Source: Candidatus Uhrbacteria bacterium (GTDB lineage: Bacteria; Patescibacteriota; Patescibacteriia; UBA9934; GWF2-40-263). Taken from it: a stretch of DNA of 64,000 nt. A program made the translations under genes and the position numbers. Of the stretch, positions 17,494 through 39,931 are shown piece after piece. Where the stretch lies: contig JBAXQK010000002.1 of the NCBI GenBank assembly GCA_037131775.1, forward strand, positions 23,472 to 87,471, read 5' to 3'. The number at the start of each line of letters is the position of its first letter. The stretch's first letter is position 1. The notes beneath the pieces were generated by a model, which saw only the letters and a list, made by a program, of their open reading frames with translations, made no database searches and had not been told where the DNA came from.

Positions 17494-20400
17494 TTATGGT
17501 GCGGGACAATACGTGAAGTTGATGTTACTGAAGGTTACATATCCGGTTCCAGTAAAGGTCGTGGACATCGGGATGGACATGTCCGACCCGGTGCACTGGA
17601 AATCCGGCGGAAACGGAAGCGTCTTGTCATTGCCGTCCGAAACGTTTCCAGTCGTCGTCACGGACGTCCCGGTCGAAGATTCCGTCGTAAGTCCGACGGT
17701 CACATTGATGATCGAGCTGATAATCGAATCGTACATCCCGGCCACGCCGTCCTCGTCCTGGGCAGAGAACGCGTATGTGCCTGTCGTGCAGTCGTTGATA
17801 TCCGCATACAGATGTCCACACGTTTCGCTGGACATGTGTGCCATATACGATGCGTATACGTCGTCGGTCGTCGCCGTTATCGCGGCCGTGTAGACGCTGA
17901 CGTCACCGCTTCCGCGGACGGCTCCATTCTCATCGTCGGCCGAACAGGTGCTCAGCAGTCCTTTGTCGACCTGTTTTGTACAGCAGTAGTAATTGGACGT
18001 TGTTTCGTCATCGAGGGTGGTCGAGGCATCGTTGCCGCAGCTCGGATGCGTTGTACCATCCTCGCACACTCCGGCGGTGGTAGAGTTCGTACACATCGTA
18101 CTCGTCTTACTGATGTAGGTCTGTCCATCCGACAAAAGAATGATCAGTTTCACGTCAGCGGAGGATGCATCAAGCTCAGTAATCGCCGCCTTCATCCCCT
18201 GATAGATTGGCGGCCCCCAGCCAAGGTCTGACTCAAGCGCGTATCCTTCAACGGTTGCGATGAGATCATTTTCATCCATCGACCCGAGCGCCGCGTCGAT
18301 CGTATACCCATCCCCGCCATAAACGCCGGATCTAACTGCGGAACTTCCAATTCGCATGAGTCCGACTTGCAAATCGCCGGACGAGAGCGAGTCATAGAGC
18401 GTTTGAATGGCAGTAGACTCCGACGCACTGACGATATCCATGCGGCTATATCCCGACGGAGGAGTAGACGTACACGTTCCACCGGTCCCGCACTCAGAAG
18501 AAGTTGTGCAGTCCGTCCCGACGACGGCGGTTCCCGCTCCGTCACAATGATTATTCCCATCGACCCAGTCGCCCATGGTTCCCGTATAATCCGTAATGAA
18601 GTACACGGCCACGCTCGGCGGGGTCACGTTCGAGGTCGTGTCTACGTCGGCCGTGATCTGGGTTCCCACGCTGCATGCCGGGATGTACAGGACGGCGCTG
18701 TCCGGGTTCAAGTCAGAGTCGGACGGGTAGCTGTAGAGGTTGATGGTATCCGACGCCGTTCCGCCCGCCTCGCTGGTCTGGCCGAGGACGGAAACGGTCT
18801 GGTAGCTGAACGGGCAGGAGGTGGAGCAGGTAGAGTCGCAGGTTGGGACGACGCATTCCGAATCCGCCCCGCAGGCGTTCCTGTCCTCCGTCGTGCTCGT
18901 GTGACCGGAAACGACCGTGCAGCGTTCGCCTTGCTTGGATCCTCCATTGCACACCCCAAGCTCGCGACAGGTGAAACCGGAATCGCATCCCGCCGAAGAG
19001 CCTTCCGTTCCTTCATTGACGGAACCGCACGTTCCGCCGAGGTCCGTCGCGCTGGTGCCACCCTCGCCGTCCGCGTTGTCGAAGCAGTAAAACGGAATGT
19101 CCGCCCCGTCGCACAGCTCCGTGCCATTGATCGCGCCGTCGCCGCAGTAGGCGCCCGACTTGGTCTTGTACTGGCAGTTGATGGTGCAGTAGTGGCACAT
19201 CCCCTCGTAGACGGCCGTACAGTCGTCGCCGTTGAGCGATCCGTCGTCGCAGGATTCCACCCCGGAATAAACGAGCTCGTCGCCGCAGACGTTCGCCTTG
19301 CAGTCGTTGGTGCAGGCGTCGGTGTTGTCGGTGTTACCGTCGTCGCAGACCTCGGTGCCGTCGACCGTGCCGTTGCCGCAATAGTCGGCGCTGACGCATG
19401 CGGTCCAGGTTCCCCAGGTGCAGGCGGACGTCGAGCAGGTTTGGGAACGGGCGAGGTCGTAGACGACCGTTCCGCAAGAACCGTTGCCGTCCGCGAGGTT
19501 AATGGCGTCGCAGGACGTTCCGTCGACCTTCAGGCCGGTCGAACTGTCGCAGATGCTACCGGAGTCAATGTCGGTGATCGAGTCGGCGTTTCCATCCGTC
19601 GCGCACACCGTGCTCGATCCGCACGACGCTCCGCCGTCGCCGCAGGAAGAACCGTCGGTGCAGTCCGCGTTCGTCGTGCATTCCGTTGCGTCCGCGCACA
19701 GTGCCCCGGACCATTTCTGATAGCCGCCGTCGCACTGCTCGGACCCATTCACCTCCCCGTCACCGCAGCTCGGGCCGGGGCTCTTGCAGTCGTAGGAGCA
19801 CGTTCCGGTCGGGCTGGTGGCGTACTGTCCGTTCGAAACCGCGCAATGGTTGAGCCGTGCCCAGCTCGGGGTCGTATCATACATGACCGCCGTGAAGTTC
19901 GCCGAAACGCCGCAGTCGCACTGCTCGCCGCCGGCAAGGTAACCGTCGCCGCAGGAAAAGGCGGAAGTGAGGGTGCAGTCATCGCCGCAGTGGCCGTAGG
20001 TCCCGTTAAGAGACCCATCGTCGCAGGTCTCGGTCGCGCCGTCCACGACGCCGTTGCCGCAGGAGTACGGCGTACAGACGCCGCCCGCGGCGACCGCGGT
20101 CGTCTCGTCCTGGAACGCGGAGCAGTCGGATAGGCACGTTGCAAGCATCGTTCCTGCCACGCCGTCAGAATCCGTACAGTCGACGGTCGTCGTGTCCCCG
20201 ATCTCGCACGCCTCGTATCCCTCGGCGGACGGATCTGTTTCCTTCGTATTCACTACCCCGTCGCCACAGATCGACGACGTTCCAAGGGTCACGCCGTAGC
20301 AGAATGCGGCCGGGTCCGTAGAAGAGACGAAGTTCGTCGGCGAGGCCGTGCCGGACGGGTGGTACTCCGCGGTCACCGTGCCAAGCGTGGACGGATTAAG

Positions 20401-23400
20401 CTCCTTCGCCCAAGTTCCCGCATCGAACTCAAGCTCCGTCGACAGCTCGAAGGACGTGCCGCCGACGCTTCGGTAACCGTAGACATGGGACTCGTCGGGA
20501 CAGGTGAAGGTGGCCGCGACCGAGTTCCAGCAGGTGGCGGACTCGTAGTTCTCGCCGTCGCAATTCATGAACTCGTTCACCGGGTCGGTGGGAAGCGACG
20601 TGCCGAGCGCGTTGCCAAGCCCCGCCGTCCACGACGGCCAGGTGCTTGTGGAGTACGAGCTGACAAAGGTGCCGTCCGCGAGCTTCGGAACGGAAGGCTC
20701 GCACGTTTCGGTTCCCGGACACTCGTCGTCCGCCGTACAGGTCTGGTTCGTGGTCACCGAGCAGAGGCCGTTCGCGGCGCCGTAGCCGTCGAGTTCGCCC
20801 GCGATCACGACGACGTCCTCCAGGCGGCGCATGTCGCGCGTGAGCTTGGCCTTGTCGGCGTCGCAAATTTGGCCGGAGGCGCAGTCGCCGTCCCAGACGC
20901 ACGGAATGAGGTCGCCCGTGGTCACGTCCGTCGGATAGCTTCCGTCCGTGCTCGACTGGCAGAGGTTGATGTCCGTGACGACGTCGTCATTGGCGTTGAA
21001 CGACCAGTTCGCCAGGATCTGCGCGAAAATTTCCTGCGAGGAAGCCTCCGCGTTCTCCGTATAGGAGATGGCGTACACGTTCGGGTAGATGGTCCCGGAA
21101 TTGGTGACGTTCGTGGCCGCGACGTACGTGGTGTTGCCGTCCGTGATCGCCTCGTAACCGTCTACCGTCGTGCTCGACGGGGATCCTCCGGTGAATCCCT
21201 GCGCGACATACCAGGCGGACGGGGTGAGGTACGAGGAATTCGGAAGCACACGGACGCCGATGGCGTCGGAAGTTCCCTCCACCTTGAAGATCAGGTCCTG
21301 GATGATGTCGGACGTATAGGATTCGACCGCGATTGGCGTCTCAAGCTCGGGAAGATCGTCGGTTGTGTCCTTCGCCACGCCGGCATCCTGGCAGTAGAAG
21401 AAGCTGAAATTTGAGTCGGCATCGAGATACAGGCCGTTCGAATTCTCGACGGTCGGGACGTTGTCGCAGACGTTTACGACGACCTTCAGGGTTCCGCTTA
21501 CCCCTCCGCTCGTTTCGCCGAAGGTGTTGGTCGCGCTGAACGCCGCGGTTGCCACGACGGATTCCTGGCCCGTCTTGTCGGAAGCGGTCACGGTGGATGC
21601 GGCGTCCGTCGAACTCGCCGACGAAACGATGTTTTCCGTATCCGCGTCAATGACGGTCGAGTCCCACGTCCAGCTCCAGCCGTAGCTCGCCGTCGGCTGA
21701 ATTTCCTCCTCGCGCCCGCCACGGACGGTGTTTGGAATCGACACGAACGCGTGCTGCTCGCCGGAAGCCGTGAACGATCCGACGCTTGGGTCGACGATGT
21801 CGCTCGCGGGAGTCACGCCCGTGTCCTCCACGGTCACGGAATCAAGACCGCAAATTTCCGTACCCGTCTGAAAGGTTACCGCGTATTTACCGTCCGGCGC
21901 CCCATTCGCGTCTACGCCAACGGCATGGGCGGAAAGAACGCCGTCGTTCAGGCCGTCGACCGCGTCGGTCAGGTCGGCGTCCTCCACCACGACAAGGGTG
22001 TAGTAGGAATTGGCCTCCAGAACGTCCGTAATGTTGAGCGAGACGCGCGAGCCGCCGAACTCGTTCGCCGTCAGCGAGTACGTCACGGGAGTCAGGCAGT
22101 AGGCCGTCGTATCCGCGGCCTGCGCGGTTCCACCGAACATGCCCGTGACGGAACGCACGACCCAATTCCAAGCGCGCGCGATCCACGAACGGCTCGCCGT
22201 GTCGCCGTACGCAAGCAGGCTTGCCTGGAGATAGCCGGACGGACAGTCGGCAATGTCGATCGCGTCGCCCGTCGACGTCGTCAGGGCGAGGTACAGGTTC
22301 TGGTGGCCTTCGCCGTAATCGAATACGCCCGTGTTCGGTCCCGCCGTATCGTCCCACGACATCAGCGAATTCGAGTCCATCACGTCCGAGAAGTCCACGT
22401 AGATCGCCGCGTTCAGGCACACGTTCGTCTCCCCGATTCCCTGGGAAACGGCCTCGACGGTCGGGCGCTCGAAGCAGCAGGAGGATGTCCCGCAGCCGTA
22501 CGCGTCGTCGCCGCACTGCGCATCGTTCTCACAGGAACAGGTCAGCGTAAGCGTTCCGCTTCCCTCCACGCCGCTCGTCGTTTCCGTTGCCGTAATCGAC
22601 GACTCCGCCGTGTGCGTGGTCGCGTCCACGTCCAAGACCGCCTCTGGATTCACGTAGGAGACGCCCCAATATCCAAAGGCGGTATCCCCGGACGGATCCG
22701 TTGCCGCGTCGCACTCCTCGGCACCCGTGTCAATGACAGCCCCGTTATACTCGTTCGTCCCCGTACGATGCGTCGTACCGTCGCCGCAGTAGCTCGACGT
22801 GCCCAATGACGATCCCTCGTCCACGCAGGATGAGGAACACCCGTCTCCGTTCGTGGTATTGCCATCGTCACAATCCTCGGCGCGAGGGCTCCAGGCGCCG
22901 GTTACGCCGCGGTAATCAATGCGTCCGTCGCCGCAGCACGGCGAAACGACAGGGAGACAGGCATCGGTGGCGCTTCCGCAGTATGTCGACGCGTCGGCCC
23001 CGATTCCCGGACAGTCGCTGGTGGGATTGTCGCGACAGGCGAACGCGCAGACGTTTGCCCCCTCAAACAGACAGATCGAAGAACATCCGTCTCCGCTGGC
23101 AACGTTGCCATCATCGCAGTCCTCACCGGAATCGATGTTGCTGTTTCCGCAGATTGAATTGTATCCGGAACGAGCCACGGTTCCCTCGTTCAGACAGTCA
23201 GAAGAGCATCCCGCGGTGCCGTCGCAATCCTCGCCTCCGTCGCTCGCCGACTGGTCGACAGTCGATCCGTCGCAGGAGGTGCCGGCCTTTCGCGCTCCGT
23301 TATTCAGACAGACGGAAGAGCATCCGTCGGAGTTGTCCGTGTTCGAGTCGTCACACTCCTCTCCGGTTCCGACCGCGCCGTCGCCGCACACGCTCGGGGA

Positions 23401-26400
23401 GCGGTAGTCCGCCGAAGCTCCCTCGTGCAGACAGGTGGTCGTGGAACACCCTTCTCCCCCGTCGCAATCCTCTCCTGGCTCCACCAGGCCGTTTCCGCAG
23501 AAATAGTCGCTTGTGGTCGCCTCCGATCCCGTGTTCAGGCAGTTCGAAGAACATCCGGTCTGAAGAACGGAAGTGATGCGAAGCGGGTCGGACGCGCTGT
23601 TCAGCATGGTCGCGACGTCGCCAAGGGAGGGGCCGGTCGCGTCGACGGCAGTCCACGCGTCCCAGCCGTAGCTCAGCGGGTCAAGCTCCTGGCCGTTCAC
23701 GGAGCAGCTGTCCCGGGCGCCGAACGGAATGGCCTGCCAAAGCGCCTCCTCGCCGATATGCGTTGCGGACGAAGATTTCGGGTCGGTCTCAATCCGATCG
23801 ACCGCGCACGGCTCGTCGGAATCCTTGGTCTTGAATTTCCAAGAAAAGTCGTTCGAGAACTCAGAATACCCGTTGTCCTCGGAAGGATAGTTGCTTCCCG
23901 ACTCCGACAGGGCCACGCCGGAGAGCGATTCGACGTCTCCGGAAATCACGACGCGGTACCAGGTGTTCTTGGTAAAGGGCTCCGAGTGCGTGAAGGTGAC
24001 GGACCTCGAGTCGGCGGAAAGGTCATACGAGACCACGTTGTCCCAGAGCGTCATCTCGCCCGAGTCGGTCGAGCAGAGCGAATCCTGGCAAGAGTAGATC
24101 GTGACGGTGCTGTCGGAAAAATTTTTCGATCCCAAAGCTGTCTCGTCCGCCATGACCGTGTTGAAGTCGGCGGTAATCCCTCCGTTCAAACACACCGAAT
24201 CGCAGCTCGGCGTCCAGCTGGTGACCTCCGGGTCGGTGAAGTTGATCGTAAGCTGTCCGGCGTCGCTCGGCTCGTCGCCCGTCGGGTTCACGGCCTGCGC
24301 GGTGATGTCTACCGGGGATCCGCTGGTGGTTTCGGCGATGGCGGTGGCGAGGGTGGCGCAGGAGCCGGTCGCGGAGGTCGTCGGTTCTACCGACGCAAGC
24401 TGCGACTGCGAGGAGTCCCACGTCCAGCCGTAATTCGTGCAATCCAACGCGACGCAGAAGTCATTCTGCGACAGCGCCAGTGCCGAATACGATTGGGTCT
24501 GCCCAGCCTCCGTTATCGTGTGCGCGGACGGACTGACGACGACGGATCCGATGTTACACGGCTCGGTCGTGGCGGCGGTCGTAAACGTCCAGGAATAGTC
24601 GTTCGCCATGAAGATTCCGTCCTCCGACGTAATTCCCGCGGCGTCGAGGGTCACGGTATACGTGGCGCTCGGCAGGAAGTCGCCTCCCGTCGGACTCCAG
24701 CTGAACGTATATCCGCCCGGCGTTTCGCCGTCCGCCATCACTCCCGCGATGTCCGCGCCGTCCGGATCCGTGACGTGGAGGTACGGGGCAAGGTCATCCC
24801 ATTTCATCATCGGCATGTCGAACGTCGCCGTGACGGCGGCGTTCACGCAGATGTTCTTCGACTCGCTCCAATTGTTCCACGGTGACGGGGACGTAACCAC
24901 GCCCTCGCTGCAGTCGACGACCACCTTCGGCGTCGCGGGAATCGTGGTGGTCGAGAACATCCAGGAGTAATGCGACTCCTGGGGCTCATCCGCGCAGATG
25001 GCCGCGCATTGACCGTTCGAGCAGCAGCTCGTTCCCTCTACGTCGCAGAAACCGTCGCCGTCGGCCAGACAGCTTCCAACCTTGAAATTCAGCTCGTTCG
25101 ATCGATACCCATTCGCGTCGGTCACGTACACGGGTCCGGTTTCGGCCGAGGCGGGCACGGTTGCCGTGACGGAAGAGAGCGACGAGTCCCAGCTCAGGAC
25201 GGACGCGCTTTCGGAAGACGAGAACGTCACGGACGCGGATCCCGTGTGCCTTCCGAGGTTGTCGCCCGCGATGTCGACGTTCGTGGTGGTCACGGGCCCC
25301 GAGACAGGATCAAGATTACAGATGCCCGGGCCCGGAGTGTCGTCGAGAACGGTAAAGTCCGTCGCCTCCGACGAGGCCGATCCCGTCTCGACGGTAAGCG
25401 AGTACGTCGCACCGAGCCCGATCGCCGAGCCGTCCGTGAACGTCGCGGGAACCTTCACGATGATTTCCGTATCGCCCCACGTGTCGGATCCGCAGGCCTC
25501 CGGAAAATCCGTATCGCCCCACGCGACGCTTCCGCTGGTGTCCTGCGCGGAAAAATGGACCGTGCCGGCCGTCGAGCCGAATCCGGTTCCGTTGATGGTC
25601 ACGTACTGCCCGATCGGCCCCCACGTGTCCTGGTCGTCGCACGTGTCTCCCGGATTGACCGCGGAACAGTCCGCATCGGCCGAGCAGCGGGTTCCCATCG
25701 CCTTGCATGCGGTCCAGCCCGAAACGACGGACGCGATGACCGGAGTGGTTCCTTCGGACGAGTCGACGACGGTGAATGACACCTTGTTCGATCCCTGGCG
25801 CAGCGAAACGCAGGATCCGTCCGTTCCGCAGTCGGAGTCCGTCTCGCAGAATGCGTCGGAACCGGAGCAGCGCATGGTTGCGCACGATTCGCCTGATGTC
25901 GTGTCACAGTCCGCGTCCGTCGCGCATGTGACCTGTGGCGTCACGGCCCCCTGGGTCGTCGCGCAAACGTAATCCCCCACCCAAACCTGAGTGTCATAAT
26001 CGCGAGCGTTCAGGAGCGGAACCTGGACGGATAGCGCGGCGGAGGCCCAGCTGTAGTAATCCGATGCCTCGTAGTTTCCAAAGTAGACCGTCGAGGTCCC
26101 TTGGCTCGATTCGCTCGATGAGGTGAAATTATTTCCCGAGAGTCCGACCGTCGAGTGACCGATTCCGGACGTCGGATCCGGCGGACACAGACCCGGACGC
26201 ACCACGGAGTTCACGTCAAAGTCACTGACGGTAGCCCCGTAGTCGTCGTTGGTGGCGTCGACGTACGCGTCGGGATGGGTCGCGTCGGTTCCGGTCGTGA
26301 CGCGAATCGGGCCGTCCTTCATGGAACCGGAAACCTGGACGATAATCTGCGTGTCCGTCCAGGTGGAACCGGTCTCGCACTGGTACTCGGACGCGGTCAC

Positions 26401-27882
26401 GGGGTTCGAGTACGTACCGTTCGTGTCGACGGCGCCAAGGAACTGCACGGTTCCCGGCGTCGATCCAAAACCGCTTCCAATGATGGAGATGATGTTTCCT
26501 TCCGTTCCATCGCCAGGCGAAACAGAGGTGATTTCCGGAACGCTCTCGCAAACGCCATCGACGACAAGTCCCGTCTCGGGATCAATTTCTCCGGAGCAGT
26601 ACCCGCTCGAGCAGTCGGCATTGGACGTGCACGGCGACCCGTCGCACGCGCCGCACTCGCTCGTTCCGCCGCAGTCGCCAGGCGGATCCGCCTCGCCATT
26701 GTTTGCAACGCCGTCGTTGCAGGAAGCGGGATAGACCTCAATGCTTACCCCGGAAGACGTGCTGGCGTGTCCGGCACAGTCCGTTCCCCTTGCGCGAATG
26801 GTATGGCTTCCCGTCGCGTAATCCGAAGAGACATACCACTCCGATCCGTCCGCGGTCGAGAAAAAATTTTCCGACGAAAGGGATCCGGCGGTCGAGTCCG
26901 TCGAGAGCGCCGCGTCGTAGATCGAATCCCCGTTGTCGATCGTAAAGGCAAGGCTCGAGACGCCCGTGTCGTCGACCGTGTACGCCTGCAGCGGTCGGAT
27001 CTCGTTCGTATAGACGGCCGATCCTTCTTCCGGGGCCGAAATTTCCATCGTGGTCGGGCCTTCCGTGTCCACGGCCGTCCCGGTCGTGAAGTCGAACGAG
27101 CACGGGTATGTCGTGTCGCACTTGTACGCCAAATCCGTCGAGCTCTTCAACGTTGTCGTACTCAGCTCAATCGTATAATCCGCGCCCGCGTCATAGCAAT
27201 GCTCGGTCGGAAATCCATCGGCGGAACAGTCCTGCGTCGGGGTGAACGTGGCCACCGTTCCGGCAACGGCGAACGTTCCCGGGACGTCCGTTCCAGACTG
27301 CTGTACGCGGATCCCACCATTGTTAATGGATTCGAGGCTGGGACTTTTACTGAAGGTAAACTGCAGGTTTACGTTTTTAATCGCGTACGCGCACTCGAGG
27401 TTGACGTCCGTCAAGACGAATTGACTCGACGTGCCTCCCCCGTCGCCGTATCCCCCGCCGTTCCCGCCGCTGCCCGACGACGTGCTCGTCCCGTTCAGTG
27501 CGCCCATCAGCTGGCCGAGGATAAACTGGACGATGGCGAATGCGGAAAGAATGATGACGAGACCGACGATCGCCGACGAGAACAGTTTCTTCGCGCTCTT
27601 GATCTTGTCGTCGTTCCCTCCCGACGTCATGTAGCGGAACCCCCCGACGAGAATCAGGACGACGGCGATGATGCCGAGGATCGAGATGACCGTTCGAATG
27701 AGCCTGGCGATGGTGATCGTGAGCGTCTCGCCCGTCGCAAGACCCGCGGTTTCCGCGAAGGAGCTCAGTCCCGAGGTCGGGTCCACGACCTGCGCGAACG
27801 CATGCGGGGCAATCGCAAGAGCTCCGACCGTTACGAAGACGGCAAAGAGGATCGAGAGCAGGCTCTTGCGGGAAAATATCAT
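17494..27882 (-). CDS. giant secreted/surface protein (3462 aa) with an N-terminal pilin-like module, IPT/TIG and Ig-like domains, Cys-rich repeats and a C-terminal vWA domain
   Basis: A 10.4 kb stop-free ORF. It has an N-terminal signal peptide plus a VirB2/TrbC-like two-helix module, then a Gly-rich linker. Further domains are IPT/TIG (ITSVSPGDG...GSGFG), many C-x-C-DDGN-x-NGDGCS-x-C repeats, and a C-terminal vWA domain (KLIILLSDGQ). Confidence 0.85.
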   Translation of the reverse strand: MIFSRKSLLSILFAVFVTVGALAIAPHAFAQVVDPTSGLSSFAETAGLATGETLTITIARLIRTVISILGIIAVVLILVGGFRYMTSGGNDDKIKSAKKLFSSAIVGLVIILSAFAIVQFILGQLMGALNGTSTSSGSGGNGGGYGDGGGTSSQFVLTDVNLECAYAIKNVNLQFTFSKSPSLESINNGGIRVQQSGTDVPGTFAVAGTVATFTPTQDCSADGFPTEHCYDAGADYTIELSTTTLKSSTDLAYKCDTTYPCSFDFTTGTAVDTEGPTTMEISAPEEGSAVYTNEIRPLQAYTVDDTGVSSLAFTIDNGDSIYDAALSTDSTAGSLSSENFFSTADGSEWYVSSDYATGSHTIRARGTDCAGHASTSSGVSIEVYPASCNDGVANNGEADPPGDCGGTSECGACDGSPCTSNADCSSGYCSGEIDPETGLVVDGVCESVPEITSVSPGDGTEGNIISIIGSGFGSTPGTVQFLGAVDTNGTYSNPVTASEYQCETGSTWTDTQIIVQVSGSMKDGPIRVTTGTDATHPDAYVDATNDDYGATVSDFDVNSVVRPGLCPPDPTSGIGHSTVGLSGNNFTSSSESSQGTSTVYFGNYEASDYYSWASAALSVQVPLLNARDYDTQVWVGDYVCATTQGAVTPQVTCATDADCDTTSGESCATMRCSGSDAFCETDSDCGTDGSCVSLRQGSNKVSFTVVDSSEGTTPVIASVVSGWTACKAMGTRCSADADCSAVNPGDTCDDQDTWGPIGQYVTINGTGFGSTAGTVHFSAQDTSGSVAWGDTDFPEACGSDTWGDTEIIVKVPATFTDGSAIGLGATYSLTVETGSASSEATDFTVLDDTPGPGICNLDPVSGPVTTTNVDIAGDNLGRHTGSASVTFSSSESASVLSWDSSLSSVTATVPASAETGPVYVTDANGYRSNELNFKVGSCLADGDGFCDVEGTSCCSNGQCAAICADEPQESHYSWMFSTTTIPATPKVVVDCSEGVVTSPSPWNNWSESKNICVNAAVTATFDMPMMKWDDLAPYLHVTDPDGADIAGVMADGETPGGYTFSWSPTGGDFLPSATYTVTLDAAGITSEDGIFMANDYSWTFTTAATTEPCNIGSVVVSPSAHTITEAGQTQSYSALALSQNDFCVALDCTNYGWTWDSSQSQLASVEPTTSATGSCATLATAIAETTSGSPVDITAQAVNPTGDEPSDAGQLTINFTDPEVTSWTPSCDSVCLNGGITADFNTVMADETALGSKNFSDSTVTIYSCQDSLCSTDSGEMTLWDNVVSYDLSADSRSVTFTHSEPFTKNTWYRVVISGDVESLSGVALSESGSNYPSEDNGYSEFSNDFSWKFKTKDSDEPCAVDRIETDPKSSSATHIGEEALWQAIPFGARDSCSVNGQELDPLSYGWDAWTAVDATGPSLGDVATMLNSASDPLRITSVLQTGCSSNCLNTGSEATTSDYFCGNGLVEPGEDCDGGEGCSTTTCLHEGASADYRSPSVCGDGAVGTGEECDDSNTDNSDGCSSVCLNNGARKAGTSCDGSTVDQSASDGGEDCDGTAGCSSDCLNEGTVARSGYNSICGNSNIDSGEDCDDGNVASGDGCSSICLFEGANVCAFACRDNPTSDCPGIGADASTYCGSATDACLPVVSPCCGDGRIDYRGVTGAWSPRAEDCDDGNTTNGDGCSSSCVDEGSSLGTSSYCGDGTTHRTGTNEYNGAVIDTGAEECDAATDPSGDTAFGYWGVSYVNPEAVLDVDATTHTAESSITATETTSGVEGSGTLTLTCSCENDAQCGDDAYGCGTSSCCFERPTVEAVSQGIGETNVCLNAAIYVDFSDVMDSNSLMSWDDTAGPNTGVFDYGEGHQNLYLALTTSTGDAIDIADCPSGYLQASLLAYGDTASRSWIARAWNWVVRSVTGMFGGTAQAADTTAYCLTPVTYSLTANEFGGSRVSLNITDVLEANSYYTLVVVEDADLTDAVDGLNDGVLSAHAVGVDANGAPDGKYAVTFQTGTEICGLDSVTVEDTGVTPASDIVDPSVGSFTASGEQHAFVSIPNTVRGGREEEIQPTASYGWSWTWDSTVIDADTENIVSSASSTDAASTVTASDKTGQESVVATAAFSATNTFGETSGGVSGTLKVVVNVCDNVPTVENSNGLYLDADSNFSFFYCQDAGVAKDTTDDLPELETPIAVESYTSDIIQDLIFKVEGTSDAIGVRVLPNSSYLTPSAWYVAQGFTGGSPSSTTVDGYEAITDGNTTYVAATNVTNSGTIYPNVYAISYTENAEASSQEIFAQILANWSFNANDDVVTDINLCQSSTDGSYPTDVTTGDLIPCVWDGDCASGQICDADKAKLTRDMRRLEDVVVIAGELDGYGAANGLCSVTTNQTCTADDECPGTETCEPSVPKLADGTFVSSYSTSTWPSWTAGLGNALGTSLPTDPVNEFMNCDGENYESATCWNSVAATFTCPDESHVYGYRSVGGTSFELSTELEFDAGTWAKELNPSTLGTVTAEYHPSGTASPTNFVSSTDPAAFCYGVTLGTSSICGDGVVNTKETDPSAEGYEACEIGDTTTVDCTDSDGVAGTMLATCLSDCSAFQDETTAVAAGGVCTPYSCGNGVVDGATETCDDGSLNGTYGHCGDDCTLTSAFSCGDGYLAGGEQCDCGVSANFTAVMYDTTPSWARLNHCAVSNGQYATSPTGTCSYDCKSPGPSCGDGEVNGSEQCDGGYQKWSGALCADATECTTNADCTDGSSCGDGGASCGSSTVCATDGNADSITDIDSGSICDSSTGLKVDGTSCDAINLADGNGSCGTVVYDLARSQTCSTSACTWGTWTACVSADYCGNGTVDGTEVCDDGNTDNTDACTNDCKANVCGDELVYSGVESCDDGSLNGDDCTAVYEGMCHYCTINCQYKTKSGAYCGDGAINGTELCDGADIPFYCFDNADGEGGTSATDLGGTCGSVNEGTEGSSAGCDSGFTCRELGVCNGGSKQGERCTVVSGHTSTTEDRNACGADSECVVPTCDSTCSTSCPFSYQTVSVLGQTSEAGGTASDTINLYSYPSDSDLNPDSAVLYIPACSVGTQITADVDTTSNVTPPSVAVYFITDYTGTMGDWVDGNNHCDGAGTAVVGTDCTTSSECGTGGTCTSTPPSGYSRMDIVSASESTAIQTLYDSLSSGDLQVGLMRIGSSAVRSGVYGGDGYTIDAALGSMDENDLIATVEGYALESDLGWGPPIYQGMKAAITELDASSADVKLIILLSDGQTYISKTSTMCTNSTTAGVCEDGTTHPSCGNDASTTLDDETTSNYYCCTKQVDKGLLSTCSADDENGAVRGSGDVSVYTAAITATTDDVYASYMAHMSSETCGHLYADINDCTTGTYAFSAQDEDGVAGMYDSIISSIINVTVGLTTESSTGTSVTTTGNVSDGNDKTLPFPPDFQCTGSDMSIPMSTTFTGTGYVTFSNINFTYCPAP

Positions 27883-27888
27883 AGCGCG

Positions 27889-29793
27889 CTAATTGGAAGA
27901 TTCTGGATTTGAGTCTGGAAGTTCCACGGTCGCCGGAGTCGTAAGCGTCGTATCAAGATTTGTCGTGTGGCAGGCCCTTTCGGATGGAAAGCCATTGCAG
28001 CAATACCTGGCCGTCGTCGTGCTCGTTCCGCACATCCCCGTTCCGGCCGCGTTCGGACCGTCCACGGGATACGCGCAGATTTGGTACGCGGACTTCACGT
28101 CACGCGTAATGACCGGGTCGTAGTCCCATCCGTTGTCCTCGTTGCTGACAAGACCCGGATGCGCGATCTCCACGGTCGTGTTGATCGTCTCGTCGTCGAC
28201 GACCAGGTCCGTCTTGCTCGTCGTAAACCAGAACTCATACCACGGGTCTGCCCACAGCGAGACGTTTGTCGTATTGAGCGTCGAGGATTTCATCGGAACG
28301 GAGAACGTCGCGGTTACGTTCGCCGACGGCGATGACAGCCCCTCGAGGATGCCCGGATGCATCTCGGTAATGGTCGGGACGGTGTCGTTTATCTCGTCGT
28401 TGGTCTGGAATCCCCAGACGTAGTTATCGTCGTCGGGACCCGTCCCCTCGTCATCGCCGTTTCCGTCGAGCGAGTTCGCGGACGCGTCCTCCAGGCCGTT
28501 TGCCGGCACGAAGATCGGATCGGCCTGCGGCGGCTCGTCGCCGACGCTCGCCGCCTTGGCCGTGACCTCGATCGCGTTCGTGCTCGCGCTGCCGCCCGGA
28601 GCCGGAAGGCAGTAGATGGTGTCGCCGCACGGATCGACGCCGCACGCCTCGGTCGGCGTGAACTCGATCGTCTTGTACGCGTTGGAAATTGAGAACGTCC
28701 CGTCCACGTATCCGCTCGCCGCGGTCGAGGAACCGACGGTGATGTTGCTGAACGTCTGCGTCGGGTTCGGATTTGACTCCGTCGGCGCCACGTACGTCCC
28801 CGTTCCGGCCACCGGGTCCATCGCCTCGTCGAACGTGATGGAAACGGTGATGTTTCGCGCATCGGTGGCGGAGGCACGCGGGATGACGGACACGACCTTC
28901 GGAGGAGTGAGGTCGACCTCCGTGGAAACCTCGAACGTCCACTCGTACCCATCCTGATTCGACGCGGTGAACGCGGCCGTTTTGTCCGCCTTCTTGATGC
29001 TGTTCGTCAGTTTGACGGTATAGTTCGTGTCGTCCGTCGAGCTGCCAAGGAGATCGACCGGGTCGAAGACGAAGATGGTGTGATCCGCGTTCATGGTCAC
29101 GGAAACGGCGCTTGCCCCCAGCTTCAGCGTATCCACGCTCGCCTCGTCCGCGGTCTTGTAGATCAGAACGTTCGCGGAATTCAGATCGGTGGAAGTCGGG
29201 CTCAGGTCGTAGCCGGAGATGATCGAGGCCGGATCGATCGGCTCCTTGAACGTCACCATGATGCGCGTGTTGCGCGGAATGCCGATCGCGTTGCGCTCCG
29301 GATAGTGCGACTCGATGATGCCCGCGCCGAGCGATCCGGAAAGCGGCTCGCTGTACCGGTCGGCGACGGACGTGCTTCCCGTCGCACCGCCCCAGTTGTC
29401 CAGCAGGCTGTTCAGGATGTAACTCGCGATCGTGAACGAAAAGATACAGAGGATCATTCCGATCACTCCGTTCTTGATCATGTCCTTCGCCTTCTTCAGC
29501 TTGGTGTCGTCGCCCTGCGCCGTCATGTAGATCCATCCGGCATAGAGGACGACGATCGTGAAGATGATCCCGAGCGTTCCGAGGAAGACGCGGATGACCT
29601 TCGCGATGATGATCGGCAGGCTGTTGGTGGACGCGCCGGCAGCCGCGGCCGACGTGGCGAGCTGCGTCGCCGCGCTCTGGACGGACTGCGCGAGCGCTGG
29701 GTGCGCGGCGGCAATAACGCAAACGGCGAGCACGCCAAAGGCGGCTCCGGCGGCGAGGCGGCTGCGCATAGTGTTTGGGAGAAAACGCATCAT
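27889..29793 (-). CDS. secreted protein (634 aa) with an N-terminal pilin-like two-helix module followed by SbsA/Big-type Ig-like domains
   Basis: The signal peptide ends AAHPALAQ. It is followed by helix-loop(GDDTKLKKAKD)-helix and Ig-like repeats (PPKVVSVIPRASATDARNITVSITFDEAMDP). Confidence 0.7.
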   Translation of the reverse strand: MMRFLPNTMRSRLAAGAAFGVLAVCVIAAAHPALAQSVQSAATQLATSAAAAGASTNSLPIIIAKVIRVFLGTLGIIFTIVVLYAGWIYMTAQGDDTKLKKAKDMIKNGVIGMILCIFSFTIASYILNSLLDNWGGATGSTSVADRYSEPLSGSLGAGIIESHYPERNAIGIPRNTRIMVTFKEPIDPASIISGYDLSPTSTDLNSANVLIYKTADEASVDTLKLGASAVSVTMNADHTIFVFDPVDLLGSSTDDTNYTVKLTNSIKKADKTAAFTASNQDGYEWTFEVSTEVDLTPPKVVSVIPRASATDARNITVSITFDEAMDPVAGTGTYVAPTESNPNPTQTFSNITVGSSTAASGYVDGTFSISNAYKTIEFTPTEACGVDPCGDTIYCLPAPGGSASTNAIEVTAKAASVGDEPPQADPIFVPANGLEDASANSLDGNGDDEGTGPDDDNYVWGFQTNDEINDTVPTITEMHPGILEGLSSPSANVTATFSVPMKSSTLNTTNVSLWADPWYEFWFTTSKTDLVVDDETINTTVEIAHPGLVSNEDNGWDYDPVITRDVKSAYQICAYPVDGPNAAGTGMCGTSTTTARYCCNGFPSERACHTTNLDTTLTTPATVELPDSNPESSN

Positions 29794-29873: not shown

Positions 29874-30614
29874 TCACCCGAGCTTCTGAATCGTCGCGGT
29901 CGCGATGGCAATGAGCCCCGCCATGAGGATCGTTCCGAAGATTCCGACGCCGATCTGCTGGAGGCCGTGATGGTGTCCGTGGTCGCGTCCCGACGACGTC
30001 ATCACGGTCACGGCGCCCATGATGATGAACAGGACGGACACGAGACCCATGAGCATGAGGAACACGCGGGCGATGCGCGCGCCGGACACGATCATCGACG
30101 CGTCCTTCGCGGCAGCGACCGTGGCGGCGAGCGCCGGATGCGCGTGCGCGAATCCGACGGCGGCGACGACGGACGCCGCGAGGATCGACTCGACGACCGC
30201 CTTCACGCGCGATCCGTCGGCGCGTCCTCCCACGGCCTTCATCGCCGCGCCCATCGCCTTCCCCGTGTCGGCCTTCGTCGTGGCCCCGGCGATCTGCAGC
30301 GCGTCCTTCACCACCTGCGACAGCGTCACGTCGTCCATCTGCGTCGGGAGATATTTCTCCAGGAGCGCGATCTCCTTCTTCGCCGCCTCGACCGTCTCGG
30401 GACGCCCCGCCGTCTCCGCCACGTCGCTCGCCTCGCGCAACTGCTTCACCTGCATCTTGATAATGGCGACGACGTCCTCGTCGGCAAGTTCCTTCTGCGC
30501 GTCGATCTCCTTGTTCTTCACCGCGGACTTCAGCATCCGCAGCGTGGAAAGGGTGTCCGCGTCCTTGGCCTTCATCGCTTCCTTCAGGTCGTTTGAGATT
30601 TGTTCGATAAGCAT
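29874..30614 (-). CDS. yqeY: YqeY/GatB-domain protein fused in-frame to a C-terminal pilin-like (signal peptide + two-helix) module
   Basis: The N-terminal 150 aa match YqeY (MLIEQISNDLKEAMKAKD...KAMGAAMKAVGGRADGSRVKAVVESIL). The C-terminal 100 aa carry AHAHPALA plus two hydrophobic helices, paralogous to the N-termini of the next two genes. Confidence 0.65.
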   Translation of the reverse strand: MLIEQISNDLKEAMKAKDADTLSTLRMLKSAVKNKEIDAQKELADEDVVAIIKMQVKQLREASDVAETAGRPETVEAAKKEIALLEKYLPTQMDDVTLSQVVKDALQIAGATTKADTGKAMGAAMKAVGGRADGSRVKAVVESILAASVVAAVGFAHAHPALAATVAAAKDASMIVSGARIARVFLMLMGLVSVLFIIMGAVTVMTSSGRDHGHHHGLQQIGVGIFGTILMAGLIAIATATIQKLG

Positions 30615-30620
30615 ATTGGT

Positions 30621-30653
30621 TTGATTATAACACAAAAGGGATCGAAGGGGTCA
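30621..30653 (-). promoter_or_regulatory. strong extended -10 promoter (TGACCC-18-TGtTATAAT) giving a near-leaderless transcript
   Basis: On the minus strand the sequence ctgaccccttcgatcccttttgtgttataatcaaaccaatATG was seen. The -10 ends about 10 nt before the start codon at 30614. Confidence 0.5.
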
Positions 30654-30717
30654 GAGGGATCGAGGGGATCCGTTCCCCATTTTCCCTTGAACCCTTCGAA
30701 CCCTTCGAAACCCCCGA

Positions 30718-30963
30718 CTACCGTCGTCCTCCGGTCTTTCGCGGCTCTTCCACGAACTTTCCGGCCTTGATCAGATACTCGCGGTCATCCTTGATTTCCA
30801 ATCGGCGGAGCGCGCTGGCGCGGCCGCGGTTGCGGGTCGGATCCTTCTTGTGGAACCGAAGCTTGCGCGCCTCGAGCATGTTTCCACTCTGCTGGATGCG
30901 TCGCGAAAAGCGGCGCAACAGCGATTCGAAGCTTTCTCCTTTTCGGCGTTTTACGTCTACCAC
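30718..30963 (-). CDS. rpsU: 30S ribosomal protein S21
   Basis: The N-terminus matches S21 (VDVKRRKGESFESLLRRFSRR). It has a GTG start with an AAGGAAGGTGA Shine-Dalgarno. Confidence 0.85.
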   Translation of the reverse strand: MVDVKRRKGESFESLLRRFSRRIQQSGNMLEARKLRFHKKDPTRNRGRASALRRLEIKDDREYLIKAGKFVEEPRKTGGRR

Positions 30964-32668: not shown

Positions 32669-33298
32669 CTACAAACTGTACGTCGGCGCCTCGAACGTTC
32701 CTACGCGCGACAGCGGCAACCCGCGCACCCAGACGCGGCCGACGATCGCGGACTTGCTAATCGGTCCGAAGCTTCGCGAGTCGAGGCTTTCGTCGCGATT
32801 GTCTCCCATGACGAAATATTCGTCGGTGCCGAGCGTGACCTTTTTCTTTCCCTGCGAGAGCGTGCTTCCGAGGTAAAGCTTCTCGTCGAGGATCTGTCCG
32901 TTCGGATGCGCGTCGTTGTAGATGACGACCGCGCCGCCGGTGATCTCGACCGTCTCCCCCGGAAGCCCGACCAGCCGCTTGATGAAGAACTGGCTTGGGT
33001 CGCGCGGATAGCGGAACACGATGATCTCTCCCCGCTCCGGCTCGCGCATGCGGAAGGTGAGCTCGTCGATGATCAGGTATTCCCTGTCGTAGAAGTTTGG
33101 CTCCATGCTCGCGCCCTTCACGTAGAACGGCTGCACGAGGAAGTACCGGATCGGCACGATGATCGCCGCCGAGATGATGACGATCTGCAAAACCTCCAGA
33201 ATAAAAACCGCCATCGACCCAACCACCGGCCCGAAGCGCCGATGCCAGACCGTGTCGAGCGGATCGTCGTGTTCCTTGCGCTTGGCGAATGAAAACAT
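32669..33298 (-). CDS. lepB: signal peptidase I
   Basis: The catalytic Ser context GASMEPN, GDNRDESLDSR and an N-terminal TM segment are present. The start was reassigned to MFSFAKRK. Confidence 0.85.
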   Translation of the reverse strand: MFSFAKRKEHDDPLDTVWHRRFGPVVGSMAVFILEVLQIVIISAAIIVPIRYFLVQPFYVKGASMEPNFYDREYLIIDELTFRMREPERGEIIVFRYPRDPSQFFIKRLVGLPGETVEITGGAVVIYNDAHPNGQILDEKLYLGSTLSQGKKKVTLGTDEYFVMGDNRDESLDSRSFGPISKSAIVGRVWVRGLPLSRVGTFEAPTYSL

Positions 33299-33407
33299 GT
33301 GGGGGATCAATAAATCTTTTCTAGGATACCACGGTTTTTGGCAGGGATCAAGGGAGCCACTTGAACCGTCCCACATCGTATGGTATCCTCCCGCACGTGG
33401 ACAATAC

Positions 33408-38053: not shown

Positions 38054-38069
38054 TTTAAAATGCAATCGT

Positions 38070-38321
38070 ATGTCTGAACAAACTCCCGGAACAGAATCAG
38101 ATCGCGCGTTCGACGCAAAGCTCGAGGCGTTCTATTCCAAAGGCGATTGCATCGCAATGATCAAACACGCGAAGGCTCAGGGGATCGACCTCCACGCCTT
38201 TCCGCGATACGACAGGCGGATACGCGGAGTCATCCAAAGCTATCGCGAAGAGGAAGGCATGGAGCATGAGGCAGACGAGATCGCGGGCGCGTACGGCATT
38301 TCAGACGAGAAAACCCCGTAG
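38070..38321 (+). CDS. hypothetical protein (83 aa)
   Basis: Followed by its own intrinsic terminator. No family recognised. Confidence 0.4.
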   Translation: MSEQTPGTESDRAFDAKLEAFYSKGDCIAMIKHAKAQGIDLHAFPRYDRRIRGVIQSYREEEGMEHEADEIAGAYGISDEKTP

Positions 38322-38326
38322 GGACC

Positions 38327-38360
38327 AGGACGCGCCATAGGTGGCACGTCCTTTTCTTTT
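38327..38360 (+). terminator. intrinsic terminator
   Basis: Hairpin AGGACG-n14-CGTCCT followed by TTTTCTTTT. Confidence 0.5.
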
Positions 38361-38433
38361 ACATCGACTCCAAAATTGAAAACAAAAATACGGCCCGTCG
38401 TGAGACGAACCGCGAAGACAATCGAGCAAAGAT

Positions 38434-38820
38434 CTAGGTCAGCCACTCCAGACAGGTAAGTTCTCTCCAGATCCCGCGGGCCTCCTCGTCCCAGAACTCC
38501 GGATCATGGCTTGTCTCCTCAAGAAAATCCTCGAGGGAAAACTCGCCAAGAATGCCAGGGTTGTGGCTCCAGTAGCCCGCTCGCTCAAGGAGAGGAAATA
38601 CCTTGTAGTAGATCCACTCGTAGGCGCTCTTCGCCTCCTCCTTCTGGTCATACCACCGTTCCTCCGTCATCCACAGGAAGGCCGGCGTGCGCCTCCACAT
38701 GGCAGGCGCGAGTTCGCCTCGATCCGTATGACGGATGCTCTTCCTCCGTTGCTTTTCGTTCTTTGACACGTTCGCTCCGTTCGCCCTAAGGCGGTTTGAG
38801 TTCGACGTGCTTGTGATCAA
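38434..38820 (-). CDS. hypothetical protein (TTG start in track; alternative ATG start at 38700)
   Basis: Trp/Glu-rich and acidic. No family recognised. Confidence 0.35.
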   Translation of the reverse strand: MITSTSNSNRLRANGANVSKNEKQRRKSIRHTDRGELAPAMWRRTPAFLWMTEERWYDQKEEAKSAYEWIYYKVFPLLERAGYWSHNPGILGEFSLEDFLEETSHDPEFWDEEARGIWRELTCLEWLT

Positions 38821-38918
38821 TCATTCTGCCTCCATCGCGCGGCTCGACTTGGATCGTCGAGCGGCGGGATAAAAGGGGGAGCCGGCGGGCGCTCCCCAGG
38901 GGATGTTCGCGGTTCTTG

Positions 38919-39311
38919 CTACCAGCAGCGCGCCTCGTAGGGAATCTCGTGCAGCGCTTCCAGCCAGTACATTTCCTCCTCGAATGTAGTGGCCCAGAGA
39001 TCGTTCTCGCAATCGTCTGCCCAGATTTCAAGGGCCAGGACGGTCGCGAAGACTTCGCGCTCTGGTTCTGACGAGCGGCTCAGGCGCTCCAGGCTCTGTT
39101 GGACGTTGTCACCAATGCCGTAGTCCAGGCCCAGGTGGTATTGGACCCACCCGTCTCGCGGCTGGCTGAGCTCGGCCCCAATCTTGTGGTAGATGACGCA
39201 CAGCGCCCTGTTGAGCGCTCTCTCCGCCTCTTCGGCAGGATCGAGTACGGTGCGCGCCTCCTGGGTGGAGGTTCGGATCGAGACGCGGCCCTGCTTGCTT
39301 ACTTTTGACAT
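38919..39311 (-). CDS. hypothetical protein (130 aa)
   Basis: An AAGGAG Shine-Dalgarno lies 5 nt upstream of the ATG. A candidate TTGACA -35 sits about 100 nt upstream. No family recognised. Confidence 0.5.
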   Translation of the reverse strand: MSKVSKQGRVSIRTSTQEARTVLDPAEEAERALNRALCVIYHKIGAELSQPRDGWVQYHLGLDYGIGDNVQQSLERLSRSSEPEREVFATVLALEIWADDCENDLWATTFEEEMYWLEALHEIPYEARCW

Positions 39312-39436
39312 GTGCTCCTTCGCTAGCCGGACGGGATGTCCTCGCTAGTCGATGGTTGCTTTTTCATGATGCCTCCGGATGAAATCGTTCGCCGAGGCTA
39401 TCACGATTTTGCGACTTTGTCAATCGCGCGTGCCAA

Positions 39437-39460
39437 AGAAAAAAGACGGCGAGTGCCGTC
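39437..39460 (-). terminator. intrinsic terminator (minus strand)
   Basis: On the minus strand, hairpin GACGGCACTCGCCGTC is followed by TTTTTTCTTTG. Confidence 0.6.
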
Positions 39461-39627
39461 AGCGTGCCTTGTACTCGAGTTCAAGGCGCTCGATGCGCGC
39501 GCGGTACTTACCGGTCTCTTCCTCGGCCTCCTTGACCGCCGCGCGGATATCCTGACCATGCCACGAGGTCGGAGGGACGTCGACGCGTTCGTACGCAGCC
39601 GGCACGCGTGCGAGACCTCGAACCATG
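39459..39627 (-). CDS. small hypothetical ORF (about 56 aa, basic/acidic helical)
   Basis: Reads MVRGLARVPAAYERVDVPPTSWHGQDIRAAVKEAEEETGKYRARIERLELEYKAR and ends in the terminator. Below the track size cut-off. Confidence 0.3.
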
Positions 39628-39659
39628 TCAGGCCCCTTCCATTCCGCCCGGAGGCGCAG

Positions 39660-39828
39660 TCACAACTCGTTTCCACTCAGCTCGACGACATGTCCGTAAA
39701 GATGGTCTCCATGAAGCTGCGCGATCCCGGTCCAGAAGTACGATGACTTCTTGGAAGCATCCGCACCGATGGGAAAATACCAACCGGGCGCAGGCGCGCC
39801 CTTGATCTCGAGTGGCATAACGTTCTCC
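39660..39828 (-). CDS. small hypothetical ORF (about 55 aa)
   Basis: Starts MPLEIKGAPAPGWYFPIG... The upstream sequence TTCTGAAGGAGAAC, containing an AAGGAG Shine-Dalgarno, is identical to the context upstream of the gene at 40523. Confidence 0.3.
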
Positions 39829-39908
39829 TTCAGAACGCGTCGAACCTATCATTTTTTTATAAGGCCGTCAACCTTGCTGGGGGCCGGAGATTTTCACTAA
39901 GCCACTAT

Positions 39909-39931
39909 GAAAAAAGACGGCGAATGCCGTC
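39909..39931 (-). terminator. intrinsic terminator (minus strand)
   Basis: On the minus strand, hairpin GACGGCATTCGCCGTC is followed by TTTTTTCAT. It overlaps the stop of the upstream gene. Confidence 0.6.

Follow-up and report, generated by a model that had tools for sequence, protein, structure and literature searches.

YqeY is a protein found in many bacteria, usually encoded beside the gene of ribosomal protein bS21, and its function is not known. In a stretch of 64,000 nucleotides from Candidatus Uhrbacteria bacterium (GCA_037131775.1, contig JBAXQK010000002.1, positions 23,472 to 87,471, hereafter the window), the reading frame of the yqeY gene does not end with this domain: it runs on through a hydrophobic connector and into two further hydrophobic helices of pilin size. 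Is this a genuine fusion of a cytoplasmic protein with a membrane module, an error, or a pair of genes of which the second start has been missed, and what would become of such a chain in the cell? The analysis presented here identifies a single gene whose fusion is conserved across Candidatus Uhrbacteria, and a connector with the features of an internal signal peptide, suggesting that the precursor is cut by signal peptidase I into YqeY and a small pilin-like protein.

The yqeY frame continues into a membrane module

The N-terminal part of the encoded protein is a complete YqeY domain. PF09424 covers residues 4-145, corresponding to positions 2-143 of the 143 of the profile (E-value 1.3e-41, 142.5 bits), a full-length match above the curated cutoff of 27. 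An AlphaFold2 (AF2) model of the whole fusion protein, computed from 91 orthologues, has a mean predicted local distance difference test score (pLDDT) of 85.6, with values above 90 over residues 1-90 and of 79-86 from there to residue 145. A Foldseek search with the N-terminal half retrieved the solved YqeY structures 8XJE, 1NG6 and 8XJG (target template modelling score 0.64-0.88), and the predicted fold is all-helical, as in 1NG6 and 8XJE (E-value 5e-8, target score 0.80-0.88).

Beyond this domain the frame stays open, reading from ESIL into AASVVAAVGFAHAHPALA and then ATVAAAKDASMIVSGARIARV (which starts ATVAAAKD), and continues with two hydrophobic helices, at residues 185-205 and 221-242, linked by the loop TSSGRDHGHHHGLQQ. 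Stand-alone YqeY proteins stop (with LL or LS) exactly where the connector would begin. With its 246 residues, its hydrophobic connector and two more hydrophobic helices, the protein thus departs from the stand-alone, soluble form of about 147 residues: the domain is a member of the YqeY family, and the whole protein is a new architecture. An earlier note on this DNA, made from the letters alone, had described YqeY along the whole length of the domain, followed without a stop by a signal segment and two helices; its coordinates and description agree with the open reading frame (ORF) and with the full-profile PF09424 match.

The fusion is a single conserved gene

An identical 246-residue protein is present on two independent assemblies from different samples (ENA ERZ27300037 and Logan SRR7053541), and a protein 94% identical to that of the window on 16 contigs. 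A frameshift or stop error in the window, for which the earlier note had proposed inspecting the reads at 30150-30200, is therefore excluded. A homologue search gave more than 110 clusters of 240-255 residues that cover the whole query, with identities from 94% down to 39%; they come from NCBI, JGI, ENA and Logan and span G + C contents from about 40 to 63%. YqeY and the module are both present in 115 of 122 sequences (the window protein and its 121 best homologues), and in 41 loci they lie within a single uninterrupted ORF. When one genome per species was scanned, the full-length fusion was found in about 40 genomes, nearly all of them Candidatus Uhrbacteria, the closest (L005) with 94% identity. 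The ratio of nonsynonymous to synonymous substitution rates (dN/dS) of the mature module, i.e. the part that follows the predicted cleavage site, is 0.16-0.19 against four relatives; the module is therefore translated in this frame and constrained. The gene is real and single, and the fusion is conserved across Uhrbacteria. The possibility of a genuine, unusual fusion that the earlier note had raised is borne out by the same in-frame arrangement in the orthologues.

Where public databases name these fusions, they are listed under Patescibacteria or Candidatus Uhrbacteria as 'GatB/YqeY domain-containing protein'; the annotation names only the YqeY half, and the pilin-like half goes unrecognised in these genes. 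Many contigs with the fusion and the gene cassette described below (L009, L014, L016 and others, from binchicken/SRP co-assembly metagenome-assembled genomes) are titled 'uncultured Gammaproteobacteria bacterium', and another fusion contig (L043) 'Lentisphaerae bacterium'. On contigs carrying a fusion of the Uhrbacteria type, these titles are probably wrong or placeholder taxonomy.

The connector resembles an internal signal peptide

The segment that joins the two halves consists of a hydrophobic h-region and a polar c-region (Table 1). In the AF2 model, the last YqeY helix and the h-region form a single continuous helix (residues 134-156); the h-region would thus prolong the domain and cross the membrane, its predicted orientation being inside to outside. 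The only low-confidence loop of the model lies at residues 163-169, where the pLDDT falls below 50, and is followed by a confident hairpin.

An alignment of the 91 fusions contains only 17 invariant columns, among them position -1 of the predicted cleavage site, A163 (Ala in 91 of 91). Position -3 (residue 161) is restricted to Ala in 74 sequences, Val in 13, Ile in two and Thr in two, position -2 (residue 162) is free (L, H, F, Q, S, Y or W), position +1 (residue 164) is Ala in 79, and positions -4 to -6 (residues 158-160) are rich in P, S, T, H, D and E. The columns of the h-region, which is about 13 residues long, are hydrophobic yet variable. The dN/dS of the connector reaches 0.5-1.5, against 0.16-0.19 for the mature part, as expected for the core of a signal peptide. 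Moreover, when aligned through the module profile, the connector pairs with the true signal peptide at the N-terminus of the protein encoded next, and both have AHPALA as their terminal hexapeptide.

A short h-region together with the -3/-1 motif tells cleaved signals from uncleaved anchors, the length of the h-region separating the two (PMC2120157). The connector displays the features of signal peptidase I substrates, namely small residues at -1 and -3, a free position -2, a polar, helix-breaking c-region and an h-region within the range of about 7-15 residues. An N-terminal position with a short basic n-region is lacking, the segment beginning at residue 144 after a folded domain, with R136 and K138 as the only positive charges nearby. 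Judged from its sequence, the connector is an internal signal-peptide-like segment with a cleavage-site signature. A signal peptidase I gene, lepB, lies three genes upstream, and the order lepB-hisS-rpsU-yqeY recurs in L001 and L085; its product may be the processing enzyme, although the arrangement may be no more than synteny.

The C-terminal module is a divergent relative of VirB2-like pilins

In Patescibacteria, VirB2-like modules rank with the protein families that have expanded most, and they are considered important for life on host cells. The predicted mature module of the window protein comprises an N-terminal flank with two invariant arginines (R180 and R183, in RIARV), which precedes the first hydrophobic helix, and a hairpin that AF2 models with a pLDDT of 87-94 (helices at residues 172-206 and 212-245). 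The C-terminus of the window protein has no significant match in Pfam or NCBIfam, and its homology was therefore established via the family profile. When 28 orthologous modules were compared with Pfam, the most common match was PF18895 (T4SS_pilin), found for seven of them at E ≤ 1 (best E-value 1e-4), and PF04956 (TrbC/VirB2) appeared twice, weakly. A hidden Markov model (HMM) of the module has only three matches among the ORFs of the window: the module itself and the N-termini of the two downstream genes, nearly over its full length (E-values 4.8e-13 and 7.1e-13), and both of these downstream proteins pass the PF18895 gathering score. In nearly all related loci, the corresponding neighbours are likewise matched by this HMM.

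By these profile comparisons, the module is homologous to the PF18895 (VirB2-like) modules of the two downstream proteins, as a divergent PF18895 homologue and not as a threshold-passing member of the family. The layout of PF18895 proteins, i.e. a signal peptide, two hydrophobic helices, a short loop and a mature length of about 70-110 residues, is present, with the particularity that the signal peptide is internal. It is because of this homology that 'pilin-sized signal-peptide + two-helix module', as the earlier note put it, was an apt description. The 'VirB2-like pilins' of Patescibacteria are the family of this module, and many of their genes lie near virB4 (PMC12102498).

A word-indexed homologue search with the module profile gave one match, and an exhaustive profile search of 1.84 billion representatives was used instead, which returned 3984 matches. 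Four kinds of protein make up the top 150 representatives: stand-alone proteins of small size that bring a signal peptide of their own, tandem arrays, giants with an N-terminal module, and YqeY fusions; no cytoplasmic domain other than YqeY was found fused to the module among them. Two candidates for such fusions (P0201 and P0264) were rejected, having N-terminal signal peptides and extracellular Cys-rich regions. No significant match was obtained between the module profile and PDB sequences.

Tandem PF18895-like modules, with two to eight copies per polypeptide, occur in 46 of the 147 best new representatives (P0122, P0128, P0159 and others), for example six copies in a protein of 552 residues and eight in one of 820; in the examples inspected, an N-terminal signal peptide precedes the first copy alone. 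In the subclade of the window, the interhelix loop is His-rich (SGRDHGHHHG, residues 208-217, positions 29964-29993), and an 'RD..H' pattern extends to a broader set of fusions; this may hint at a role in sensing metal or pH.

Some relatives encode the two halves separately

In six relatives, a stand-alone YqeY is followed by a separate two-helix protein of the same module subfamily, with 76-92 residues (about 130-160 in L045). The two genes overlap by 4 nt (ATGA) in L044 and L089, are separated by 2 and 6 nt in L085 and L086, and lie further apart in L088 (about 210 nt) and L045 (about 100 nt). The hydrophobic connector and the A-x-A motif are clearly missing in five of the six, L045 being ambiguous. 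The two halves can therefore work as separate, coupled polypeptides, the connector being needed only when they are fused. Neighbour-joining trees of the 145-residue YqeY domain were unstable between two runs and do not polarise the ancestral state, fused or split.

The comparison of orthologous loci proposed in the earlier note thus has a twofold answer, YqeY and the module being fused in 41 loci and yqeY and a small gene separate in the six relatives. Its idea of a separate small pilin gene holds for these six, but their small genes lack the signal peptide (with the same ambiguity for L045). For the window, the consistent fusion of the orthologues and the lack of any conserved internal initiation signal among them speak for one protein, the outcome that the note itself had set against a separate gene.

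Fate of the fusion protein

We favour, with a probability of roughly 0.55, a reading in which signal peptidase I cuts the precursor into a membrane-stubbed YqeY and an 83-residue pilin-like protein. The YqeY domain would fold in the cytoplasm, the connector would insert so that its N-terminal end faces inwards and its C-terminal end outwards, and the hairpin would insert with both ends outside and its short loop inside, like its paralogues that bear signal peptides. Signal peptidase I would cleave after Ala163, leaving a YqeY that keeps a short stub in the membrane and setting free, in a 1:1 ratio to it, a pilin-like hairpin. The split relatives, with two adjacent genes, would reach the same end state genetically.

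A number of observations weigh against this reading. Cleavage is predicted from a sequence signature, and a cleavable signal peptide placed after a folded domain of 143 residues, amounting to a very large 'n-region', is unusual in bacteria. The invariant R180 and R183 would lie on the outside face, contrary to the positive-inside rule, with a loop that is roughly neutral, and the split variants have no signal peptide, so that their topology could differ. Regarding the pilin-like nature of the product, neither the window protein nor its C-terminus matches PF18895 even at E-values up to 10, the gathering score not being reached, and a Foldseek search of the AF2 hairpin against the PDB gave nothing at E ≤ 0.001, only generic helical hairpins and no solved VirB2 or TraA. 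Among the main ORFs of the 64 kb window, Pfam scans found no VirB4, VirB6, coupling protein or other type IV secretion system (T4SS) gene. Finally, a terminator-like hairpin parts the fusion gene from the two downstream genes, and their co-expression is thus not implied.

The chain might also stay uncut, an outcome that we consider possible and clearly less probable than cleavage. The connector would then be the first transmembrane helix of an intact three-helix anchor that keeps YqeY on the inner side of the membrane, where it could act beside the hairpin or at the site where the giant proteins encoded downstream are secreted. The stability of the fusion over deep divergence and the uninterrupted helix drawn by AF2 at residues 134-156 are consistent with such a tether, as is the tight coupling of the split genes (ATGA overlap, gaps of 2-6 nt), which suggests physical cooperation. 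However, a tether leaves unexplained why the Ala at -1 is invariant, why position -3 is restricted, why the c-region is polar and helix-breaking and why the core has only about 13 residues, and the split variants that do without the connector (five of six, L045 ambiguous) indicate that covalent linkage is dispensable. An origin of the composite gene in a sequencing or assembly frameshift, or in a lost stop codon that merged yqeY with an adjacent small pilin gene, might have been suspected from the end of stand-alone YqeY exactly at the start of the connector and from the split arrangements of some relatives; the identical protein in two independent assemblies and samples, the same architecture in more than 110 clusters across NCBI, JGI, ENA and Logan, and purifying selection on the whole ORF leave it next to no probability, and we regard it as ruled out.

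It is also improbable that an internal start, at a GTG codon for V137 or at Met 121 or 125, yields a pre-pilin with its own signal peptide beside the full-length protein or in place of it. In the window V137 is indeed encoded by GTG, the stretch M-K-A-V-V-E-S-I-L followed by the h-region and the A-x-A motif would read as a classical signal peptide, and T4SS pilins are said often to have long leaders. Across the 41 loci, however, the V137 codon is GTG in 22, GTA in 11, GTC in three, GTT in two, ATC in two and ATA in one, i.e. a possible start in 22 loci only, and no Shine-Dalgarno-like motif precedes it in any of them; on this codon and motif evidence, a conserved internal start at VKAVVESIL, as the earlier note had envisaged, is rejected as a general mechanism. 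The stand-alone YqeY of Bacilli conserves R136-V137-K138 and M121/M125 just as strongly, and their conservation is therefore explained by the YqeY fold. Moreover, the reading frame is open and in register in every fusion, and the mRNA, to judge from a -10-like box ending 9 nt ahead of the ATG, may be almost leaderless, a condition under which initiation at the 5' end would be favoured. A free pilin-like product of about 83 residues thus plausibly arises through cleavage by signal peptidase and not from a second start codon.

Signal peptidase cleavage could be given a wider meaning, which we regard as doubtful and put forward only tentatively. YqeY would serve as an outsized leader for a membrane protein of pilin type, and the precursor would be a natural bacterial polyprotein. 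The fusion would at the same time be a Rosetta-stone link placing YqeY at the membrane, in the company of the VirB2-like hairpin and of the pair of giant surface proteins whose genes follow, a functional partnership that we infer.

Genomic context

The gene is preceded by rpsU, its usual partner (an rpsU-yqeY operon has been described, PMC13374519). The hairpin predicted between the two genes folds at -44.5 kcal/mol (z -2.7), and an extended -10-like element, TGTTATAAT (30624-30632), overlaps it and ends 9 nt before the ATG, which may represent an rpsU terminator combined with a nearly leaderless promoter for the fusion gene. On the other side, the terminator-like hairpin downstream of the stop codon has ten pairs, six of them GC, and is followed by TTTGTTG. 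The fusion gene may thus be a nearly leaderless transcription unit of its own.

The two downstream genes code for surface proteins with an N-terminal PF18895 module (Table 1). The N-terminal 133 residues of the 634-residue protein also match NCBIfam NF045849 (Mbov_0395 family, E-value 1.6e-10, just above the cutoff), and orthologues of the giant protein carry VWA domains. NF045849 is a family of pilin-like conjugal transfer proteins of mycoplasma integrative and conjugative elements, and the match connects the module family of Patescibacteria with the conjugation systems of monoderms. Almost every related locus shows the same cassette, composed of rpsU, yqeY with or without the module, a PF18895 and Big_5 protein of about 600-690 residues and a PF18895 giant of about 3400-3500 residues. 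The pair of surface proteins is kept directly behind yqeY across Uhrbacteria (L003, L005-L047, L085 and L086), whether or not YqeY carries the module, and the cassette extends to relatives with a stand-alone YqeY and to one Magasanikbacteria genome.

The remainder of the window has a housekeeping character, with ftsA, ftsZ, nrdR, htrA, pyk, lepB, hisS, rpsU, a gene for an LCP protein, der, pth and dprA, as well as topA, relA, parAB, scpAB, synthetase genes of the lysS/asnS type, recO, adk and secY. With no VirB4, VirB6 or coupling protein, it does not qualify as a locus for pilus assembly; the Pfam scans revealed housekeeping genes only, and the presence of a pilus or T4SS locus was accordingly rejected. 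The role of major-subunit candidate for such a locus, which the earlier note would have given to a separate gene of roughly 100 residues, is not established. A region of about 1.9 kb (38054-39929) contains no ORF of at least 150 residues on either strand and no tRNA.

Table 1. Position of the fusion gene, its predicted parts and its neighbours in the window, and of the split two-helix genes on the contigs of the relatives
Feature	Position	Strand	Basis
YqeY-pilin-module fusion, complete coding sequence, 246 aa (ATG at 30614, TGA stop at 29876-29874)	29874..30614	-	ORF listing
YqeY domain, aa 1-145, predicted cytoplasmic	30180..30614	-	PF09424, AF2/Foldseek
Hydrophobic h-region of the connector, aa 144-156, ILAASVVAAVGFA	30147..30185	-	AF2, alignment of 91 fusions, dN/dS
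Polar c-region of the connector, HAHPALA, aa 157-163	30126..30146	-	Alignment of 91 fusions, AF2
Predicted signal peptidase I site, after A163	between 30126 and 30125	-	Alignment signature
Predicted mature two-helix pilin-like module, aa 164-246, 83 aa	29877..30125	-	Module HMM, AF2, dN/dS
lepB, signal peptidase I, candidate processing enzyme, three genes upstream	32669..33376	-	PF10502 (Peptidase_S26), E-value 9e-42
rpsU, ribosomal protein bS21, usual upstream partner of yqeY	30718..30963	-	PF01165
rpsU-yqeY intergenic region with hairpin (30631-30709), then UUUUGUG, and -10-like box	30624..30709	-	RNA fold
Terminator-like hairpin and T-run, starting 20 nt past the stop codon	29824..29854	-	Pattern scan
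634-aa protein: cleavable signal peptide, PF18895 two-helix module, Big_5	27889..29793	-	PF18895, 27.9 bits (cutoff 26.6)
3462-aa giant surface protein: N-terminal signal peptide, PF18895 module, TIG/Ig-like	17494..27882	-	PF18895, 38.2 bits
Split small two-helix gene, L044	5435-5665		
Split small two-helix gene, L089	428-658		
Split small two-helix gene, L085	3001-3246		
Split small two-helix gene, L086	2501-2746		
Split small two-helix gene, L088	472-750		
Split small two-helix gene, L045	5536-6018		

Comparison with known systems

Both halves of the fusion come from known families, and the architecture of YqeY, internal signal peptide and VirB2-like hairpin is not described in the literature searched, where no paper combines YqeY with such a pilin fusion. 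By sequence and predicted fold, the domain is the same complete one as in YqeY of Bacillus subtilis (1NG6), Campylobacter jejuni (8XJE) and Vibrio parahaemolyticus (8XJG), and the gene follows rpsU directly, an arrangement shared by many bacteria. The YqeY proteins known so far are soluble and stand-alone, with about 147 residues, whereas the fusion protein adds a membrane extension of 101 residues. The YqeY-domain fusions described before reportedly join tRNA enzymes (GatB, and GlnRS of Deinococcus), not membrane modules.

The PF18895 proteins of Patescibacteria (PMC12102498) and those of NF045849 share with the fusion an A-x-A signal peptide, an amphipathic, basic RxxR flank and two hydrophobic helices with a short loop. 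They differ in the location of the signal peptide, which in the fusion is internal and follows a folded cytoplasmic domain. In addition, the window protein stays under the Pfam threshold of PF18895 and has neither virB4 nor another T4SS gene nearby.

The leaders of classical T4SS propilins are about 36-51 residues long, whereas that of the fusion would reach about 163 residues, a conserved housekeeping protein included. Maturation of T4SS propilins proceeds by removal of their leader, and F TraA, RP4 TrbC and Ti VirB2 are two-helix pilins made in this way (PMC3297438), a plan that we propose for the fusion too. No structural match to solved pilins was obtained for the hairpin of the fusion, for which pilus formation, cyclisation and acetylation are hypothetical.

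Its occurrence in about 40 species-level Uhrbacteria genomes, together with the coupled split versions, is a gene-fusion clue to joint action at the membrane. Should the chain be cut, it would be a rare bacterial case in which signal peptidase parts a cytoplasmic from a membrane protein of one chain; should it stay uncut, it would be a membrane-tethered YqeY, still a useful hint on where YqeY works. In either case the fusion offers a clean, testable indication of the place of action of YqeY.

Polyproteins parted by signal peptidase at an internal signal sequence are familiar from flaviviruses and bunyaviruses. In bacteria, the FbcH cytochrome b-c1 precursor of Bradyrhizobium is said to be a polyprotein split at an internal signal sequence; we know of no other bacterial example, and of none with YqeY or a pilin. 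Cleavage is experimentally proven in the viral and FbcH cases and predicted for the fusion. The logic proposed is the same in all of them: one chain, an internal signal-like segment, a cut at the outer face of the membrane and two proteins.

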